From: a virus
Lineage: Duplodnaviria > Heunggongvirae > Uroviricota > Caudoviricetes
Reading direction: 5' to 3' (one strand)
Length of the DNA stretch: 40,878 nt
Virus record (IMG/VR): IMGVR_UViG_2713896799_000014
Coordinates: 1 to 40,878 of that record
How positions within the stretch are numbered: position 1 is the first letter of the stretch; each line of letters begins with the position of its first letter. Shown here piece after piece: positions 1,009 to 27,373 of the stretch. The translations under genes and the position numbers were made by a program. The notes beneath the pieces were generated by a model. That model ran no database searches and was not told the DNA's origin. It saw nothing but the letters and a program-made list of their open reading frames with translations.

Positions 1009-1083
1009 GTCCTCTTAGTTAAATGGATATAACGAGCCCCTCCTAAGGGCTAATTGCAGGTTCGATTCCTGCAGGGGACACCA
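1009..1083 (+). tRNA. argW: tRNA-Arg (anticodon CCU)
   Basis: 75-nt cloverleaf read by eye: acceptor GTCCTCT/AGGGGAC, anticodon loop CT-CCT-AA, T-arm GGTTCGATTCC, 3' CCA. Confidence 0.9.
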
Positions 1084-1244
1084 TTTATCAGTTCGCTCCC
1101 ATCCGTACCAGTCCGCAAAATCCCCTGAATATAAAGCCTTCCGTAGATTCACAGTTCGTAATGGTTCGCGTCAGATCGTTGACAGCCGCACTCCATGACG
1201 GGTAAAAAGTGGATAAAATAATTTTACCCACCGGATTTTTACCC

Positions 1245-2544: not shown

Positions 2545-4503
2545 TTAACCTATTTTTGTGTAGGTCCAATTAAAAGTGCCTGTGCCCTGGCTTGTAATGG
2601 TTACAATTCTCCCTGTTGCTGAAAAACTAAGAAATGCTGCTATTTTTAACGCAACAAGAATTAGCTTATCTCCATCATACATTGCCAGTTGTGTAGATGC
2701 GTAATTTTCTCCGCTTCCAGCCCCCCATACGCTAATAATGTAAGTACCTTGCGAATCTGGTATAGAGAAAAGTGTTGTCGGAGTATTTTCAGCCACAGCA
2801 GTAGAGCCTTTACTGGTAGAGAAGCATGATGTTTGCAATCCTTCCTTAGATGTTATTTGTGAATAACCATCTACGATAAGTCCTGTTTTTTTAGGGCAGT
2901 CATACCATGATACATCACCAGTACTTAGCGTACTTAAAACAGGAGTTCCTGTAGTGGTTGCTCTGAACCGGCTATTAAAGACACTTATTTTAGCTGTGTC
3001 TATTGCATGTAACATAATGGGATACCCAGACCCAGTATATGCAACTGTGTTGTTGTCAGATAAATCATCTTCTGATGACTCAATTTTAACATCGCTGCTA
3101 CCTGACGCCCTGATGTAGGAAACTACACCAGCATCACTTGGCGCAACACTTCGCATGCTGTTCTGATGTGCAGTCAGGCCAGAAATGCCACCACTACTAT
3201 TTTCGAAATGGAATAGTGCTGCCTCTCCATAACCATCTGTAGAGATGGTGTTACCCTCCGCATCAAAACCAATAATGTTAAAACTATGTGTGTTAAGAAC
3301 ATGAACGCCAGCCCCACCAAGCGAACCTGCGTTTAACGAAATATTTGATCCATCCATGGCACAGTTAATCATTGTAGCTGCAAAGACAGAACCAAACTGA
3401 TATGGTGATATACATCCAGATGTATAACATCTTTCCATCAGAATGGTAGTGCCAGTTCCTTTTGTAAAACCATTATGGCAGTTTCTGGCCCACACATTCG
3501 TAAGTTTTGTCAAGTATGTGCCAGTCTGATCATTAAAGCATGACCATGCACCATGAACTGTACAGTTTTTAATTTCAGACATTTCCAAGCTTGTTGAATT
3601 TGGAATTGTCGAGTAGAAATTAAATGCAATTTTCCCACCATCATTTTCAGGATTCGTTGGTGTGGTTCCTGGATCATAGAAAATATAAAGACCATCAATA
3701 AAAATCTGAATCATTTTTGTCGATAGGGAATCACCTTGATCTAAAGCAAAGGCTGAAATATTACCAATAATAGACATAAATGATTGCGCTCTATTTATTG
3801 TATCAGTTCCCTCTCCAACAATCCTAACGGAGTTTTTCAGAAAAATAGTTGAATTATAGTAACCAGTTCCCTTTGGAATAAGCACTGTTTTCCCCGTGTT
3901 ACATGCGGACTGAAGCGCAGCATAATCAACAGATTGAGATAGAGATGAAACAAATGGATATACCATCTGAGCGGCTGATAGTGTTGAAAATATCTCGCTT
4001 AAAGGGTGAAGCGTTCCGTCAATTGTAGCGCCAAAATCAATAACACTTATAGCCTGTGAATTTTTAATGTGCTGTGAAATAGAAGTAGCACCAGTGTACG
4101 GTTGTTTAACTGTAACTAATGCATCCCCCATTCCATCAGCATCGCTTTCTAACTGCTGCTTAAACTGATCAGGGTCATACTTCAGCACATTAGGGAAATA
4201 GAACTGCTGCGCACCATACGCATCGTACACAGCCATAGAATGACCTTGCACAGTTACGAACTTGGCAATCTGTCCATTATATACCGGGTAACCAGCAGCG
4301 TTAATGATGATTGGTTGCGATACAGGAACGTGAGAACCGTCTTCATTCTCCACATAAACCTGAATCCGGTTTTCAGGATTTACCGGGTCAGTGTCAATTT
4401 TTCCGATATAAATTTCTCCATTGGCTACGGCTTTAAAAGAACGCGCCATAGTGAAAAGTTGCGAAGGCATCGATACGATCACATTGGCTGTAATGTCTGT
4501 CAT
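2545..4503 (-). CDS. Tailspike protein (P22 gp9-like N-terminal head-binding domain, divergent receptor-binding domain)
   Basis: N-terminus [29 protein letters not shown] matches P22 gp9 head-binding domain; remainder differs from P22 endorhamnosidase. Confidence 0.85.
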
Positions 4504-5506: not shown

Positions 5507-5568
5507 GTTGGTTTTTCTCCAAGGATTTACCGACAACCGAAGCCCTGACTGTTACCGCAGTTGGGGCT

Positions 5569-5793
5569 TCAACTTTTCACTTCTTTAAAGTGCCTACCTT
5601 CTACAGTTGCTCTGAGATAAAAATTCTTATCTTTACCGTTTAGTGCTTCCCAAGCATCAACAATGCACTTATTACAGATGTGGACTTCTCGATAACCAAT
5701 AGCTTTCCTGTCAATATTAGTGAACATAACAGCTTCTTTATCTGTCAATGTGGATGCATGACAGAAGTCGCAATCTATATAAGATACCTTCAT
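5569..5793 (-). CDS. Small Cys4 zinc-ribbon protein, unknown function, inserted between arc and ant
   Basis: 74-aa ORF with CDFC...CNKC; start ATG overlaps arc stop (ATGA); not part of canonical P22 immI. Confidence 0.45.
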   Translation of the reverse strand: MKVSYIDCDFCHASTLTDKEAVMFTNIDRKAIGYREVHICNKCIVDAWEALNGKDKNFYLRATVEGRHFKEVKS

Positions 5794-23315: not shown

Positions 23316-23788
23316 ACCTCAATCTCTCTGACCGTTCCGCCAGCCTCTTTGAATTTTGCAATCAGGTTGTCAGCCTTATGCTCGAACTGACCATAACCAG
23401 CGCCCGGCAGTGAAGCCCAGATATTGCTGCAACGGTCGATTGCCTGACGAATATCACCGCGGTCAATCATCGGTAAAGCGCCACGCTCTTTAATCTGCTG
23501 CAATGCCACTGCGTCCTGGCTTTTGGGAGAGAAGTCTTTCAGGCCAAGTTGCTTGCGGTAGGCATCCCACCAACGTGAAAGAAGCTGGTAACGTCCGGCG
23601 GCTGTTGATTTGAGCTTTGGGTTTAGCGTGACAAGTTTGCGAGGGTGATCGGAGTAATCAGTGAATAGCTCTCCGCCAACAATGACGTCATAACCATGAT
23701 TTCTGGTTTTCTGACGTCCGTTATCAGTTCCCTCTGACCACGCCAGCATATCGAGGAACGCCTTACGTTGATTATTGATTTCCACCAT
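23312..23788 (-). CDS. R: Endolysin R (lytic transglycosylase)
   Basis: 158 aa; [42 protein letters not shown] matches lambda R from memory. Confidence 0.95.
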
Positions 23789-24095
23789 CTTCTACTCCGG
23801 CTTTTTTAGCAGCGAAGCGTTTGATAAGCGAACCAATCGAGTCAGTACCGATGTAGCCGATGAACACGCTCGTTATATAAGCGAGATTGCTACTTAGTCC
23901 GGCGAAGTCGAGAAGGTCACGAATGAACCAGGCGATAATGGCGCACATCGTTGCGTCGATTACTGTTTTTGTAAACGCACCGCCATTATATCTGCCGCGA
24001 AGGTACGCCATTGCAAACGCAAGGATTGCCCCGATGCCTTGTTCCTTTGCCGCGAGAATGGCGGCTAACAGGTCATGTTTTTCTGGCATCTTCAT
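23772..24095 (-). CDS. S: Holin S (S107/S105 dual start)
   Basis: 107 aa [39 protein letters not shown] matches lambda S. Confidence 0.95.
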
Positions 24096-24337
24096 GTCTT
24101 ACCCCCAATAAGGGGATTTGCTCTATTTAATTAGGAATATGGTCGGTTACTGATAGAACAAATCCAGGCTACTGTGTTTAGTAATCAGATTTGTTCGTGA
24201 CCGATATGCACGGGCAAAACGGCAGGAGGTTGTTAGCGCAACCCCTTGCCACCCGCTTTCACGAAGATCATGTGTAGAAGGCCGCAGCGTAACTATCACT
24301 GATGAATTCAGAATAGCCAGTGGCTACGGCTCAGTTA

Positions 24338-24413
24338 TGGTGCTGGTTAACGGACTTGAACCGCTACCCATTCGCTTACAAGGCGACTGCTCTACCATTA
24401 GAGCTAAACCAGC
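24338..24413 (-). tRNA. Phage-encoded tRNA-Thr (anticodon UGU), hand-folded
   Basis: Minus strand: 7-bp acceptor GCTGGTT/AACCAGC, D-stem GCTC/GAGC, anticodon loop CT-TGT-AA, T-loop TTCAAGT, 3' ACCA. Confidence 0.55.
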
Positions 24414-24418
24414 ATGTT

Positions 24419-24493
24419 TGGCGGGACAGCGTGGACTCGAACCACGATAAGAAGGTTAACAGCCTTCCGTAATGACCTTTATACGACTGACCC
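24419..24493 (-). tRNA. tRNA-like gene, probable tRNA-Asn (anticodon GUU), one acceptor-stem mismatch
   Basis: Minus strand: anticodon stem GAAGG/CCTTC perfect, loop CT-GTT-AA, T-arm CGTGG-TTCGAGT-CCACG, 3' GCCA; acceptor 6 of 7 pairs. Confidence 0.45.
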
Positions 24494-24553
24494 AAATAAA
24501 AAATCCCGAAACCGTTATGCAGGCTCCTATTACCTGCGAACTGTTTCGGGATT
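24494..24553 (-). terminator. tR' terminator ending the short 6S-like late leader transcript
   Basis: Minus strand AATCCCGAAAC...GTTTCGGGATT followed by TTTTTATTT; matches lambda tR' from memory. Confidence 0.8.
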
Positions 24554-24685
24554 GCATTTGCAGACCTCTCAGCCTGCGATGGTTGGAGTTCCAGACGATA
24601 CGTCGAAGTGACCAACTAGGCGGAATCGGTAGTAAGCGCCGCCTCTTTTTATCTCACTACCACAACGAGCGAATTAACCCATCGT

Positions 24686-24721
24686 TGGGTCAAATTTACC
24701 CAACTTTATTCAAAAAGTCAA
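24686..24721 (-). promoter_or_regulatory. Late promoter pR' with Q-utilisation region
   Basis: Minus strand TTGACT, 17-bp spacer, TAAATT, downstream of Q stop; near-identical to lambda pR' as I recall it. Confidence 0.8.
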
Positions 24722-24763
24722 TATCATGCCGTTAATATGTTGCCATCCGTGGCAATCATGCTG

Positions 24764-25387
24764 CTAACGTGTGACCGCATTCAAAATGTTGTCTGCGATT
24801 GACTCTTCTTTGTGGCATTGCACCACCAGAGCGTCATACAGCGGCTTAACAGTGCGTGACCAGGTGGGTTGAGTAAGGTTTGGGATTAGCATCGTTACAG
24901 CGCGATATGCGGCGCTTGCTGGCATTCTTGAATAGCCGACACCTTTGCATCTTCCGCATTCTTTCTCAACAACTCTCCCCCACAGCTCTGTTTTTGATAT
25001 ATCAACCGCACGGCCTGTACCGTGACAATCTCTGCATCTTGCGCCCGGCGTCGCGGCACTACGGCAATAATCCGCATAAGCGAATGTTGCGAGCACTTGC
25101 AGTACCTTTGCCTTAGTATTTCCTTCAAGCTTTGCCACACCACGGTATTTCCCCGATACCTTGTGTGCAAATTGCATCAGATAGTTGATAGCCTTTTGTT
25201 TGTCGTTCTGGCTGAGTTCGTGCTTACCACAGAATGCAGCCATTCCGAATCCGGCTTGTGATTGCGCCATCCCCATAGCAGCCATCACATCAGTACCGGA
25301 AAGAGAGTCAGAAGCCGTGGCCCGTGGTGAGTCACTCATCATCGGGCTTTTTGGCGAATGAAATTTAGCTACGCTTTCGAGTCTCAT
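24764..25387 (-). CDS. Q: Late antiterminator Q
   Basis: 207 aa; [31 protein letters not shown] and zinc-finger CRDCHGTGR...CGRCKG match lambda Q. Confidence 0.95.
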
Positions 25388-26049
25388 GCGCCTTCTCCCT
25401 GTACCTGAATCAATGTGAGGTTTCCGCAGAACACTGCGCCGGTATCGATATACATCTGGTTGGCAAATTTGAGCGGTTTCACTGCTGGCGTATGACCAAA
25501 GATGAACGTGTCCGCTCCTTTGATTTCTTTCACGATCCCGTCTTGTGAGTTGCTGATTCGTTCGCGGTTCCAGATTACCTGCTGATGATCAACTGGCTTT
25601 CCGAACTCGTATTCATCACAAGGATAATCGGCGTGGCAGATGATATATTTTTTATCTTTGCTCACCAGTTCGATGATTAACGGAAGTTCATCTGCTTTAT
25701 GGGCAAGAGCTTTAGCCAGAATTTCTTTGTCGTAATCGAGATTAAAGAACCAGCCACCGCCATTAAGCAGCCAGTGATTGACGTTTCCACGCTCTGATAA
25801 GCCATCAATCATCATTTGCTCATGGTTTCCACGTACAGCTCTGAACCAGGGGAATGTGATTAATTCCAGGCATTCGACGTTCTCTGTACCGCGATCAACC
25901 AAATCGCCAACCGAGATAAGCAGGTCTTTTTTGGTGTCGAATCCTATCGTCTCCAGTTTTTTCATCAGGTTCGTGTAGCATCCGTGCAGATCGCCAACTA
26001 CCCAAATATTTCGGTATTTGCTGCCATCAATTCTTTCGTAATAGCGCAT
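25384..26049 (-). CDS. ninI: Ser/Thr protein phosphatase NinI
   Basis: 221 aa from [25 protein letters not shown]; metallophosphatase motifs GDLHG, GDLVDRG, GNHE. Confidence 0.9.
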
Positions 26050-26233: not shown

Positions 26234-26832
26234 GCGGCCTCACTTCTGCTATTTCGCAGGTCTTTGAGTTTCTGTTGGTACTCTGCCTTGATCGCCTTGC
26301 ACTCTTCGATAGTCCAGCGATGGCGGTTATGGTTTGATTCGATTTCGTCTACTGCTTCCTGCCCGATTCGGTTAATAAGTTCGACGCGATACGGAACGAG
26401 ATTTCCGCTTTTATGCTGGTTGCACACCACGCATTGCTTGTGAATATTGCGTTCATCAAATCGGAGTTGAGGTGCCGCAGAAGTTGTCCGGTAATGTCCG
26501 GCATCCCACTGAGCAGACGTGAGCGTTCCGCACGAGATACATGGTAAGTCGCGGTCTCTTTCTCTGATGAAGGCGTTTACGGCTTGTTGGGCTTGTTTAA
26601 TCCAGTAACTGCGGGGCTTTAAGGCGAGTTTTCGAATCTTCAGTTTATCTTTCTGTTTCTGCTCCTCTCGTCGTAGTTTCTTCTCTGCTGCTTTTTCCGC
26701 TTTTTCGCGTTCTTTACTTCGTCGTTCGAGTGCTATCTTTGTTCCACAAATCTCATTACACCAATATTGATTTTGATATTTTGGTATAAACCATTCATTG
26801 CAACATTTACATTTCCTTCGATAGATTCGCAT
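26230..26832 (-). CDS. ninG: NinG (Rap-like recombination-associated endonuclease), variant N-terminus
   Basis: 200 aa from [15 protein letters not shown] with AAAGGAG upstream; C-terminal 170 aa match lambda NinG. Confidence 0.85.
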
Positions 26833-27373
26833 AAGTGCTCCTTTCGTTGCCGGAAAAATCACCGTAATACTTATCTCGGGCTTCTTCAGCAACTAGTACC
26901 GCTAACTCCAGATCATCAAAGCATCCGAAGTGTTTACTCTTGCCATGGAAACCTAGCCTAACATTCCATTTTTTCTGTCGTTTGTGCCAAGTAACTCCTC
27001 TGCAACCTGATTTGCTATTCTTTCGGATCCTTATATTTCTTGAATTTTCTATTGGCAGGCATTCTCTTAAATTTTCTGGCCTATTGTCGGTCCTAATTCC
27101 ATTAACGTGGTCAATTTGACCAGCAGGCCAACGATTATGAGTTATGTAAAAAACTAAGACGTGAGTTTTATATCTACGCCCATCTATCATGATCATTGAA
27201 TAACCGTTGGAATCAAAAGTTCCAGCAACACTATTTAATGCTATCCTTCCCTGAGTGGGAACTTTCCATCTAAATACCCCGGTAGATTTATCGAAACTTA
27301 GTAACTCAAATATCCTTTTAACAGTTAAATCTTCTCTTTTACGGTTACATCGTCTTCGCGCTGGTTTAGCCAT
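26807..27373 (-). CDS. HNH homing endonuclease with AP2-type DNA-binding domain
   Basis: HNH motif [33 protein letters not shown] and AP2-like [20 protein letters not shown]; first 9 codons MAKPARRRC copy the ninG start. Confidence 0.7.

Follow-up and report, generated by a model that had tools for sequence, protein, structure and literature searches.

A portable tRNA-Asn/tRNA-Thr pair occupies a fixed slot between the tR' terminator and the holin leader of a P22-like prophage

The stretch of DNA analysed here (referred to as the window; 40,878 nucleotides) is a mosaic P22-like prophage. It contains a P22-type tailspike head-binding domain and a sar RNA, and in the virion genes it shares about 96% identity with IME10, Dewey and CurroJimenez. 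The prophage adjoins argW, and an att core of the Sf6/Kapi1 type is located at positions 1069-1085; a second copy of this core, which would mark the prophage limits, was not found within the window. ARAGORN identified three tRNAs in total, a host-type tRNA-Arg(CCU) corresponding to argW (1009-1083, plus strand) and, on the late strand, a tRNA-Thr(UGU) and a tRNA-Asn(GUU).

The two late-strand tRNA genes are embedded in the leader of the late operon, where the order is Q, pR', tR', tRNA-Asn, a 5-nt spacer, tRNA-Thr, a leader of about 240 nt and the holin gene S. Q (24764..25387, minus strand) encodes a late antiterminator of the lambda type (Pfam PF03589 Antiterm, 192.4 bits), which at 207 aa has the same length as lambda Q; in the alignment, the 3' end of the gene and the following pR'-tR' leader are virtually identical to lambda. 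The late promoter pR' (24693..24721, minus strand; TTGACT-17 nt-TAAATT) was recovered by a promoter scan and aligns to lambda pR' as well as to the HK446 site annotated as 'similar to coliphage lambda PR''. It is followed by the intrinsic terminator tR' at the end of the 6S-type leader (24498..24550, minus strand), with a stem at 24550-24505 and a T-run at 24503-24498. The tR' segment is nearly identical to the corresponding lambda region, and the homology to lambda ends directly after TTTTTTAT. G1 of tRNA-Asn begins 4 nt past the tR' T-run, and the spacer AACAU (24414..24418, minus strand) separates tRNA-Asn from tRNA-Thr.

Downstream of tRNA-Thr, the right junction of the slot is formed by AACUGAGCCGUAGCCACUG (24318..24336, minus strand), at which the invariant S leader starts. 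This exact 19-mer was found in 123 lambdoid loci that differ in slot content, and the alignment shows hardly any difference between the window, lambda, HK446 and Sf6 from this junction up to S. The S leader contains a second terminator-like hairpin, GGCAAGGGGUUG-CGCUAA-CAACCUCCUGCC followed by GUUUUG (24215..24250, minus strand). The hairpin is located downstream of the tRNAs and is present in both the MFE and the centroid folds, and its conservation extends to lambda, HK446 and Sf6; it may correspond to lambda's second late-leader terminator, reportedly described by Luk and Szybalski in 1983. Protein coding in the late operon begins with the holin gene S (23772..24095, minus strand; Pfam PF05106, Phage_holin_3_1, 105.3 bits).

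The tRNA-Asn(GUU) gene (24419..24493, minus strand) comprises 75 nt with G73 and an encoded CCA, and the tRNA-Thr(UGU) gene (24338..24413, minus strand) comprises 76 nt with A73 and an encoded CCA. Both were called by ARAGORN, which served as an independent tRNA finder and places the anticodon at position 34 in each case, and both pass the gathering score of Rfam family RF00005 (29 bits), with 55.3 bits (E = 2.2e-09) for tRNA-Asn and 63.2 bits (E = 1.5e-11) for tRNA-Thr. The sequence-only reading that preceded this work had proposed exactly these two isoacceptors, adjacent on the late strand past tR', and had suggested ARAGORN as a check; the program accepted both folds, and its gene ends coincide to the nucleotide with the span 24338-24493 given there. 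The anticodon stem-loops are GAAGG-CUGUUAA-CCUUC in tRNA-Asn and GUCGC-CUUGUAA-GCGAA in tRNA-Thr. In E. coli, asparaginyl-tRNA synthetase recognizes G34, U35, U36 and G73, and threonyl-tRNA synthetase recognizes G1-C72, C2-G71, G35 and U36. The respective elements are present in the sequences of the window tRNA-Asn and of the window tRNA-Thr, the latter starting with G1-C72 and C2-G71. U8, A14, G18G19, U33, a purine at position 37, the T-loop GTTCRA and the discriminator plus CCA all occur in tRNA-Asn, and all but A14 in tRNA-Thr. At position 14, where an A is expected, the window tRNA-Thr has a U, most homologues have a C and P7 has an A.

Both tRNAs form canonical cloverleaves with 7/4/5/5-bp stems, apart from a few mismatched positions. 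The T-T acceptor mismatch and the weak D-stem that had been pointed out for tRNA-Asn are both real: the fourth acceptor pair is U4.U69, and the D-stem consists of three pairs plus U13.U22. tRNA-Thr has a G27.A43 mismatch. Pairs were counted over the 61 pair-bearing loci described below, to which the divergent tRNAs of Mulock, Tbat2_3, RCIP0098 and P7 were added; as MAFFT set RCIP0098 one column off in two stems, the pairs were also counted in sequence coordinates. The Thr cloverleaf was paired in 94.6% of the cells with five pairs changed on both sides, and the Asn cloverleaf in 89.4% of the cells with seven such pairs. In neither case did any of 500 shuffles reach these values, and slid controls for both tRNAs gave at most three covarying pairs. 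The exceptions to the cloverleaf are themselves conserved, namely Asn 4:69 and 13:22 and Thr 27:43. Asn 4:69 is unpaired in 14 of 14 distinct variants and 13:22 in 13 of 13, and both mismatches persist in RCIP0098, where the D, anticodon and T arms of tRNA-Asn are wholly different in sequence yet fully paired. As U4.U69 and U13.U22 are found in all distinct variants while the neighbouring pairs covary, we regard them as maintained traits of this tRNA family.

These data bear on the suggestion that one or both genes are decaying pseudo-tRNAs that are passively carried in a mosaic leader. Such a view could appeal to the two non-Watson-Crick positions U4.U69 and U13.U22 in tRNA-Asn, to G27.A43 and the U14 that replaces the near-universal A14 in tRNA-Thr, to the Thr homologue of phage L, which is now an aberrant 72-nt 'Leu(UAA)' not called by ARAGORN, and to close relatives that manage without the cassette. 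Against this, both genes score far above the Rfam threshold, the conservation of the Asn mismatches next to covarying pairs speaks for maintenance, pair-breaking variants occur only as singletons, and the anticodon loop, T-loop, G18G19, discriminator and CCA are intact. We therefore consider decay very improbable. The earlier description of the tRNA-Asn as possibly degenerate does not hold either, since, in addition to the seven covarying pairs and the mismatches shared even by RCIP0098, 47 of the 66 loci sampled have exactly this gene sequence, the copies of Sf6 and phage L included. Judged by sequence and fold, both tRNA genes are real and look functional. The identity to host genes is low (72% of tRNA-Thr to E. 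coli thrU, 63% of tRNA-Asn to asnT), which argues for an old phage lineage of tRNAs rather than for recent captures.

How the pair relates to the lambda leader was determined by a four-way alignment of the Q-S interval from the window, lambda, HK446 and Sf6. The 661 nt between the Q stop and the S start of the window match 669 nt of lambda as two separate blocks. Near-identity extends from Q through the tR' T-run and resumes at AACTGAGCCGTAGCC up to the start of S. In between, where the window has the tRNA pair of roughly 160 nt, lambda has about 165 nt of unrelated sequence, and on either side of it the two are 95-100% identical. The sequence-only reading was thus right about the retention of a lambda-like pR' and tR', the Q-pR'-tR' segment being nearly identical to that of lambda, but its estimate of an interval about 300 bp longer than in lambda has to be revised to equal length. 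Accordingly, the tRNAs are not extra DNA inserted into the leader: as a lambda segment of similar size is located at the same place, the pair is a like-for-like replacement within a fixed slot.

Collecting loci by the right flank of the slot yielded 123 loci, 61 with the tRNA pair and 62 without. The 61 pair-bearing viral loci represent 31 distinct, nearly invariant versions. The right flank is the same in all 61, and the left junction, TTTTTTATTT followed directly by GGGTC, is the same in 59 loci, in which the upstream hairpin is of the lambda type in 15 and of the 21/Sf6 type in 44. From phage to phage, both the Q/tR' module and the lysis module to which the cassette is joined vary. It is thus a portable unit of about 160 bp that occupies one fixed slot between the tR' T-run and the S leader.

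The pair as such is already known as the late-operon tRNA-Asn/tRNA-Thr of many lambda- and P22-like phages. It is annotated, at 97% identity or more, in Sf6, Kapi1, mEp506 and CurroJimenez_Bas106 and also in the vB_SosS_Oslo and SPN9CC records; the Sf6 GenBank entry lists 'tRNA-Asn ... tRNA-Thr ... similar to phage 21' after an annotated tR'. The pair is unannotated in phage 21 itself (99.4% identity over 156 nt) and in HK446. With the 661-nt Q-S interval as query, matches were obtained in 201 phage records, and a 171-nt query over the pair matched 369 of 5426 complete E. coli genomes, in which PGAP labels the genes tRNA-Thr and tRNA-Asn. As a genome feature the pair is therefore nothing new, having been annotated since the Sf6 record and labelled in hundreds of E. 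coli genomes.

The closest relatives are the pairs of Shigella phage Sf6 and coliphage 21, together with those of Kapi1, HK446, mEp506, CurroJimenez_Bas106 and the Salmonella phages SPN9CC, Oslo and S135, which are the same element at 97-99.4% identity and share the Asn-then-Thr order, the 5-nt spacer and the position after tR' and before an S-type holin. The window copy differs in that the Q/pR'/tR' to which it is fused is of the lambda type, like that of HK446 and Kapi1, whereas Sf6 has a 21-type Q/tR', and in the U14 of its tRNA-Thr, which is C14 in most copies. Other arrays start with a tRNA-Asn(GUU) of the same family, with a GGGUC... acceptor and U4.U69: Asn-Phe-Thr-Arg in Klebsiella phage Mulock, Asn-Phe-Thr in Flyfo siphovirus Tbat2_3, Asn-Arg in Klebsiella phage RCIP0098 and Asn plus the aberrant 'Leu' in Salmonella phage L/ST64T. 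Such arrays are the source of the compensatory changes counted above. In all four, Asn is located before holin or lysis genes, and in L and RCIP0098 the upstream gene is annotated as Q; the arrays differ in the tRNAs that follow Asn and in the lysis modules.

More distant systems resemble the pair in part. The temperate enterobacterial phages P1/P7 carry a dicistron of the same isoacceptors in the same order with a similarly short spacer, annotated as 5 nt between the Asn and Thr tRNAs in the P7 record. The P7 tRNA-Thr is 84% identical to that of the window, but its tRNA-Asn only 59%, and the P7 pair is located downstream of a C1-controlled operator (Op ban) and upstream of ban, not in a Q-antiterminated leader. 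In Stx phage 933W, tRNA genes are also found in the Q-to-lysis leader and are co-transcribed with the late genes under Q, the usual rationale being rare-codon supply; these tRNAs are, however, specific for Ile and Arg (AUA, AGA/AGG), and the stx genes come next. Plunkett et al. reportedly placed them, as ileZ-argN-argO, downstream of pR'/tR' in 1999. The virulent phage T5, finally, has about 24 tRNAs, expressed from promoters of their own. Two of the three isoacceptors of its Lys/Thr/Asn set are common to the window, and both sets are altered at positions 39 and 41; the T5 tRNAs share 62-67% identity with those of the window, which, unlike T5, lacks a Lys variant.

The position of the pair past tR' would make its expression part of the late programme. 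A promoter scan of 23700-25400 detected no promoter of the tRNAs' own on the late strand, pR' being the sole promoter-like site. As no promoter-like site is located between pR' and the tRNAs, read-through of tR', which is Q-dependent, is the likely route of expression: the tRNAs would be transcribed from pR' within the late transcript whenever polymerase passes the terminator, massively so once Q has been made. Host RNase P would then cut the 5' ends, RNase E and 3' exonucleases would complete the release, and host synthetases would charge the released phage tRNAs. Some expression may also occur in lysogens. pR' is constitutive in lambda, and leakage through tR' could thus give rise to some transcript, which, given the downstream hairpin at 24250-24215, could stop past the tRNAs and leave the lysis genes unexpressed. 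From the layout of the leader, low tRNA expression in lysogens is therefore possible. RNA-seq on a Kapi1 lysogen reported only antisense signal over the tRNAs (PMC12922286). For the window, no antisense promoter was called by the promoter scan on the plus strand in 24100-24340, and inspection by eye revealed nothing convincing there. We found no publication reporting sense-strand expression, processing or charging, or a functional test of the pair.

If the tRNAs are made together with the late transcript, the pools decoding AAC/AAU and ACA would grow at the time of bulk virion-protein synthesis. To compare demand, codon use was determined with a simple ATG-ORF caller on the window and on a single 50-kb sample of K-12, which served as the host baseline. 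ACA occurs at 19.3 per 1000 in the late genes versus 5.5 in the K-12 sample, an absolute excess greater than that of any other codon, and accounts for 30.7% versus 10.4% of the Thr codons; the tailspike gene alone contains 32 ACA codons. Asn codons amount to 55.3 versus 37.5 per 1000, and the combined excess of AAT and AAC (+17.8 per 1000) is the largest for any single tRNA species. By ratio, AGA is the most enriched late-gene codon (4.1x), and the larger cassettes add an Arg(UCU), which reads AGA. The late genes of lambda, which has no tRNAs, are host-like in this respect (ACA 7.5 and Asn 35.4 per 1000). In E. coli, ACA decoding rests on the single-copy thrU. The host has four tRNA-Asn genes, so a shortage of tRNA-Asn is not obvious. 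The same supplementation has been argued for phage L (PMC8022706).

Comparing late-gene codon use with the host, as the sequence-only reading had suggested, accordingly gave a split answer: the excess of ACA and Asn codons is clear, but relatives without the cassette are equally demanding. In the late genes of Dewey, which has no tRNAs, ACA and Asn codons reach 16.6 and 54.6 per 1000, compared to 14.6 and 51.4 in its tRNA-bearing sister CurroJimenez, and Asn codons reach 53.8 per 1000 in the tRNA-free P22. High ACA/Asn demand is thus a general trait of P22-like phages, to which the cassette is optional. As Dewey, with the same demand, and P22 manage without it, the cassette must be dispensable, and any benefit would have to be quantitative or conditional. 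Codon use hence fits supplementation when set against the host and fails to do so among matched relatives, so that it does not decide between supply and evasion of a defence. On balance, we slightly favour the view that the pair enlarges the tRNA pool for AAC/AAU and ACA during late virion-protein synthesis.

Defence evasion would mean that the pair provides cleavage-resistant copies of tRNAs that anticodon-stem nucleases of the host, of prophages or of satellites destroy during infection, notably AriB, the effector of PARIS. The targets of AriB include Thr(UGU) and Asn(GUU) (PMC12409363), and the isoacceptors of the pair are two of the three tRNAs that the nuclease cleaves. AriB cuts between nucleotides 40 and 41, beside U36-A-A-U39; in tRNA-Lys in vitro, U39A alone abolishes cleavage and A41C strongly inhibits it, and the Lys, Thr and Asn variants of T5 rescue infection (PMC12409363). 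Variants of tRNA-Lys(UUU), Thr(UGU) and Asn(GUU) encoded by T5 neutralise PARIS (PMC11464382, PMC12409363). Over positions 36-41, with the cut indicated by a slash, E. coli thrU reads UAAUC/A and asnT UAAUC/C, the window tRNAs read UAAGC/G (Thr) and UAACC/U (Asn), and T5 Thr reads UAAGC/A. Both window tRNAs thus lack U39 and differ from the host at position 41, and the G39-C40 of the window tRNA-Thr is also that of T5 Thr. This agreement in isoacceptors and in altered positions is striking. At 31:39, all 14 variants of tRNA-Asn have G-C, and 14 of the 16 variants of tRNA-Thr have C-G; C39 is also found in the tRNA-Asn of RCIP0098. Further points in favour are that temperate phages of unrelated kinds, P1/P7 among them, have the two tRNAs in the same Asn-then-Thr order and that codon demand fails to explain which relatives have the cassette; in addition, HepS, the Gifsy-1 nuclease, also cuts tRNA-Thr(UGU) (PMC13043305).

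Several observations do not fit evasion of AriB and make the evidence for it weak. A tRNA-Lys(UUU) is absent from the window and from every cassette variant seen, although Lys is the prime target of AriB and T5 cannot escape without its own tRNA-Lys, and the P7 tRNA-Asn, unlike that of the window, retains the host-like UAAUC/A in its anticodon stem. Ordinary tRNAs that are not targets commonly have G or C at position 39, E. coli thrT (UAAGG/G) being an example, so that two tRNAs without U39 constitute weak statistical evidence. Moreover, T5 tRNA-Lys did not become cleavable again when its site was restored, and the status of positions 39 and 41 alone is therefore no predictor of the outcome. 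The anticodon loops are the same as in the host and would thus give no protection from nucleases that cut in the loop (HepS, colicin E5 type). In the literature, we found no paper linking tRNAs of lambdoid or temperate phages to PARIS; the AriB paper mentions neither temperate phages nor Sf6, and the BASEL paper, whose assays did not include PARIS, reports no tRNA phenotype for CurroJimenez or Dewey. We therefore regard protection from AriB-like nucleases as a tentative explanation that is less likely than codon supply.

In its broader form, this explanation would make the cassette a portable 'tRNA insurance' of temperate enterobacterial phages (lambdoid, P22-like and P1-like) against Toprim nucleases of the AriB type, a speculative proposal to which, going by the anticodon-stem sequences, we assign a modest chance. 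The G/C39 variants, which are also altered at position 41, would come on together with the late operon, at the stage when tRNases of abortive infection are likeliest to be triggered. If true, the slot would serve generally for the exchange of tRNA-shaped RNAs, and the occupant of lambda's own slot would be an uncharacterised structured RNA that ends in CCA.

The tRNA-free loci show what else can occupy the slot. Among the 62 loci, 23 contain the lambda-type segment, two other large classes comprise 17 and 11 loci, and several classes are small. In all 59 scorable non-tRNA occupants, the 9-mer before a terminal CCA pairs at 8-9 of 9 positions with an upstream 9-mer, and this CCA directly abuts the same right flank. 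Lambda has the 9-bp helix GUUGUGCUG/CAGCACAAC and the other type GUUGUGGUG/CGCCACAAC, a compensatory change of one pair from C-G to G-C; 85-218 nt of unrelated sequence lie between the two strands of the helix. These alternative occupants were not accepted by ARAGORN or Rfam at normal thresholds. The lambda segment was also considered as a decayed tRNA pair, but ARAGORN at default settings returned nothing, its calls under relaxed settings were inconsistent, and Rfam at E-values up to 10 returned noise. The shared ends of the occupants suggest that the slot exchanges tRNA-shaped RNAs.

The same features could indicate a cis-acting RNA-processing module, in which the tRNA-shaped, CCA-ended element matters and decoding does not. 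The tRNAs would then be one of several interchangeable occupants of the slot, and cleavage by RNase P and RNase E would sever the pR'/tR' leader and set the 5' end of the lysis and morphogenesis mRNA. What speaks for such a module is the 9-bp helix plus CCA in 59 of 59 non-tRNA occupants, lambda's included, the compensatory switch between the two main types, and the 88-nt lambda element, which folds with z = -3.9 relative to dinucleotide shuffles. One class of occupants, moreover, has a GGUUCGAUUCC T-arm and a sub-threshold match to the tmRNA/tRNA-like domain (16.3 bits). Conversely, the rejection of the alternative occupants at normal thresholds counts against it, the lambda-type element is too invariant to reveal internal covariation, and the common ends could simply mark sites of recombination or be left over from an earlier tRNA. 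Nor would a role purely in cis account for anticodons, identity elements and entire cloverleaves being conserved. We thus consider this reading improbable as an account of the tRNA pair and prefer codon supply. Among the non-tRNA occupants, MFE folds of most representatives combine the terminal helix with an upstream domain closed by AAGAGCAUUG/CAGUGCUCUU, and, by eye, this upstream helix covaries in one further class.

The two tRNA genes are followed on the late strand, before the holin gene S is reached, by a conserved hairpin, GGCAAGGGGUUG-CGCUAA-CAACCUCCUGCC with a trailing GUUUUG (24215-24250, minus strand), which is also found in lambda, HK446 and Sf6. Since we take this hairpin to be, probably, the second late-leader terminator of lambda, the tRNA pair would be flanked by two terminators. 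Leak through tR' could therefore express the tRNAs without expression of the lysis genes.

Transcription on the opposite strand was also considered. RNA-seq of a Kapi1 lysogen displays a clear signal antisense to the cassette tRNAs, and the same paper cites a similar antisense signal in the Salmonella prophage BTP1 (PMC12922286). On the plus strand of the window, a search for a promoter-like site that could give rise to antisense RNA over the tRNAs (24338-24493) found none; a terminator-like hairpin is located on this strand at 24684-24704, inside the pR' region.

Lambda has an annotated reading frame, orf-64 (J02459, 44621-44815), which begins in the 6S leader, crosses tR' and extends into the variable slot between tR' and the S leader. 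The matching open frame of the window (24376-24615, minus strand) runs on into the tRNA genes. Thus, the C-terminus of orf-64 is not conserved, which, at the level of sequence comparison, argues against orf-64 as a real protein gene.

An A14 that pairs with U8 is near-universal in tRNAs. The tRNA-Thr of the window (24338-24413, minus strand) has U14 at this position, most of its homologues have C14, and that of P7 has A14. Its Levitt pair 15:48 covaries, being A-U in the window and G-C in P7. The tRNA annotated as 'Leu(UAA)' in the Salmonella phage L (MW013502, 37917-37988; positions 681-752 of our phage L sequence L126) and in ST64T aligns to the Thr gene of the cassette, with 89% over the tRNA pair. 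This tRNA has a length of 72 nt, its anticodon arm is disrupted, and ARAGORN made no call for it. It appears to be a Thr homologue that has diverged or decayed.

Lambda and 58 further lambdoid loci without the tRNAs have structured segments in the cassette slot. None of these segments is in the window. The lambda occupant lies at about 44790-44955 of J02459 (about 1078-1243 of L002, our lambda sequence); others occur upstream of the AACTGAGCCGTAGCCACTG flank in the loci L007, L010, L018, L023, L062, L079 and L091. Every such segment ends in a 9-bp helix (8-9 of 9 positions paired) followed by CCA, with one compensatory C-G/G-C switch between segment types, and the terminal helices enclose 85-218 nt of unrelated content. 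AAGAGCAUUG/CAGUGCUCUU closes an upstream domain, and folding of an 88-nt element in the lambda slot gave z = -3.9. None of the segments was accepted by any Rfam family or tRNA finder. They may be relics of tRNAs or a processing mimic; an uncharacterised RNA of the late leader is a third possibility.

Elsewhere in the window, the Sf6/Kapi1-type att core CTGCAGGGGACACCATT (1069-1085) is found at the 3' end of the host argW tRNA-Arg(CCU) (within 1009-1085, plus strand). This is the only copy in the window, and the other prophage end is therefore outside the window or different. A P22-type sar antisense RNA (5507-5574, plus strand; 97.4 bits) marks an immI (ant) region. An ORF of the nin region (26807-27373, minus strand), situated upstream of Q, has an HNH_3 domain (42.7 bits) as well as a weak AP2 domain and looks like a free-standing homing-endonuclease-type insertion. 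Among the late genes of the window, the tailspike gene (2545-4503, minus strand; P22 head-binding domain, PF09008) is the richest in ACA, with 32 such codons (49 per 1000), about ninefold the K-12 sample rate.
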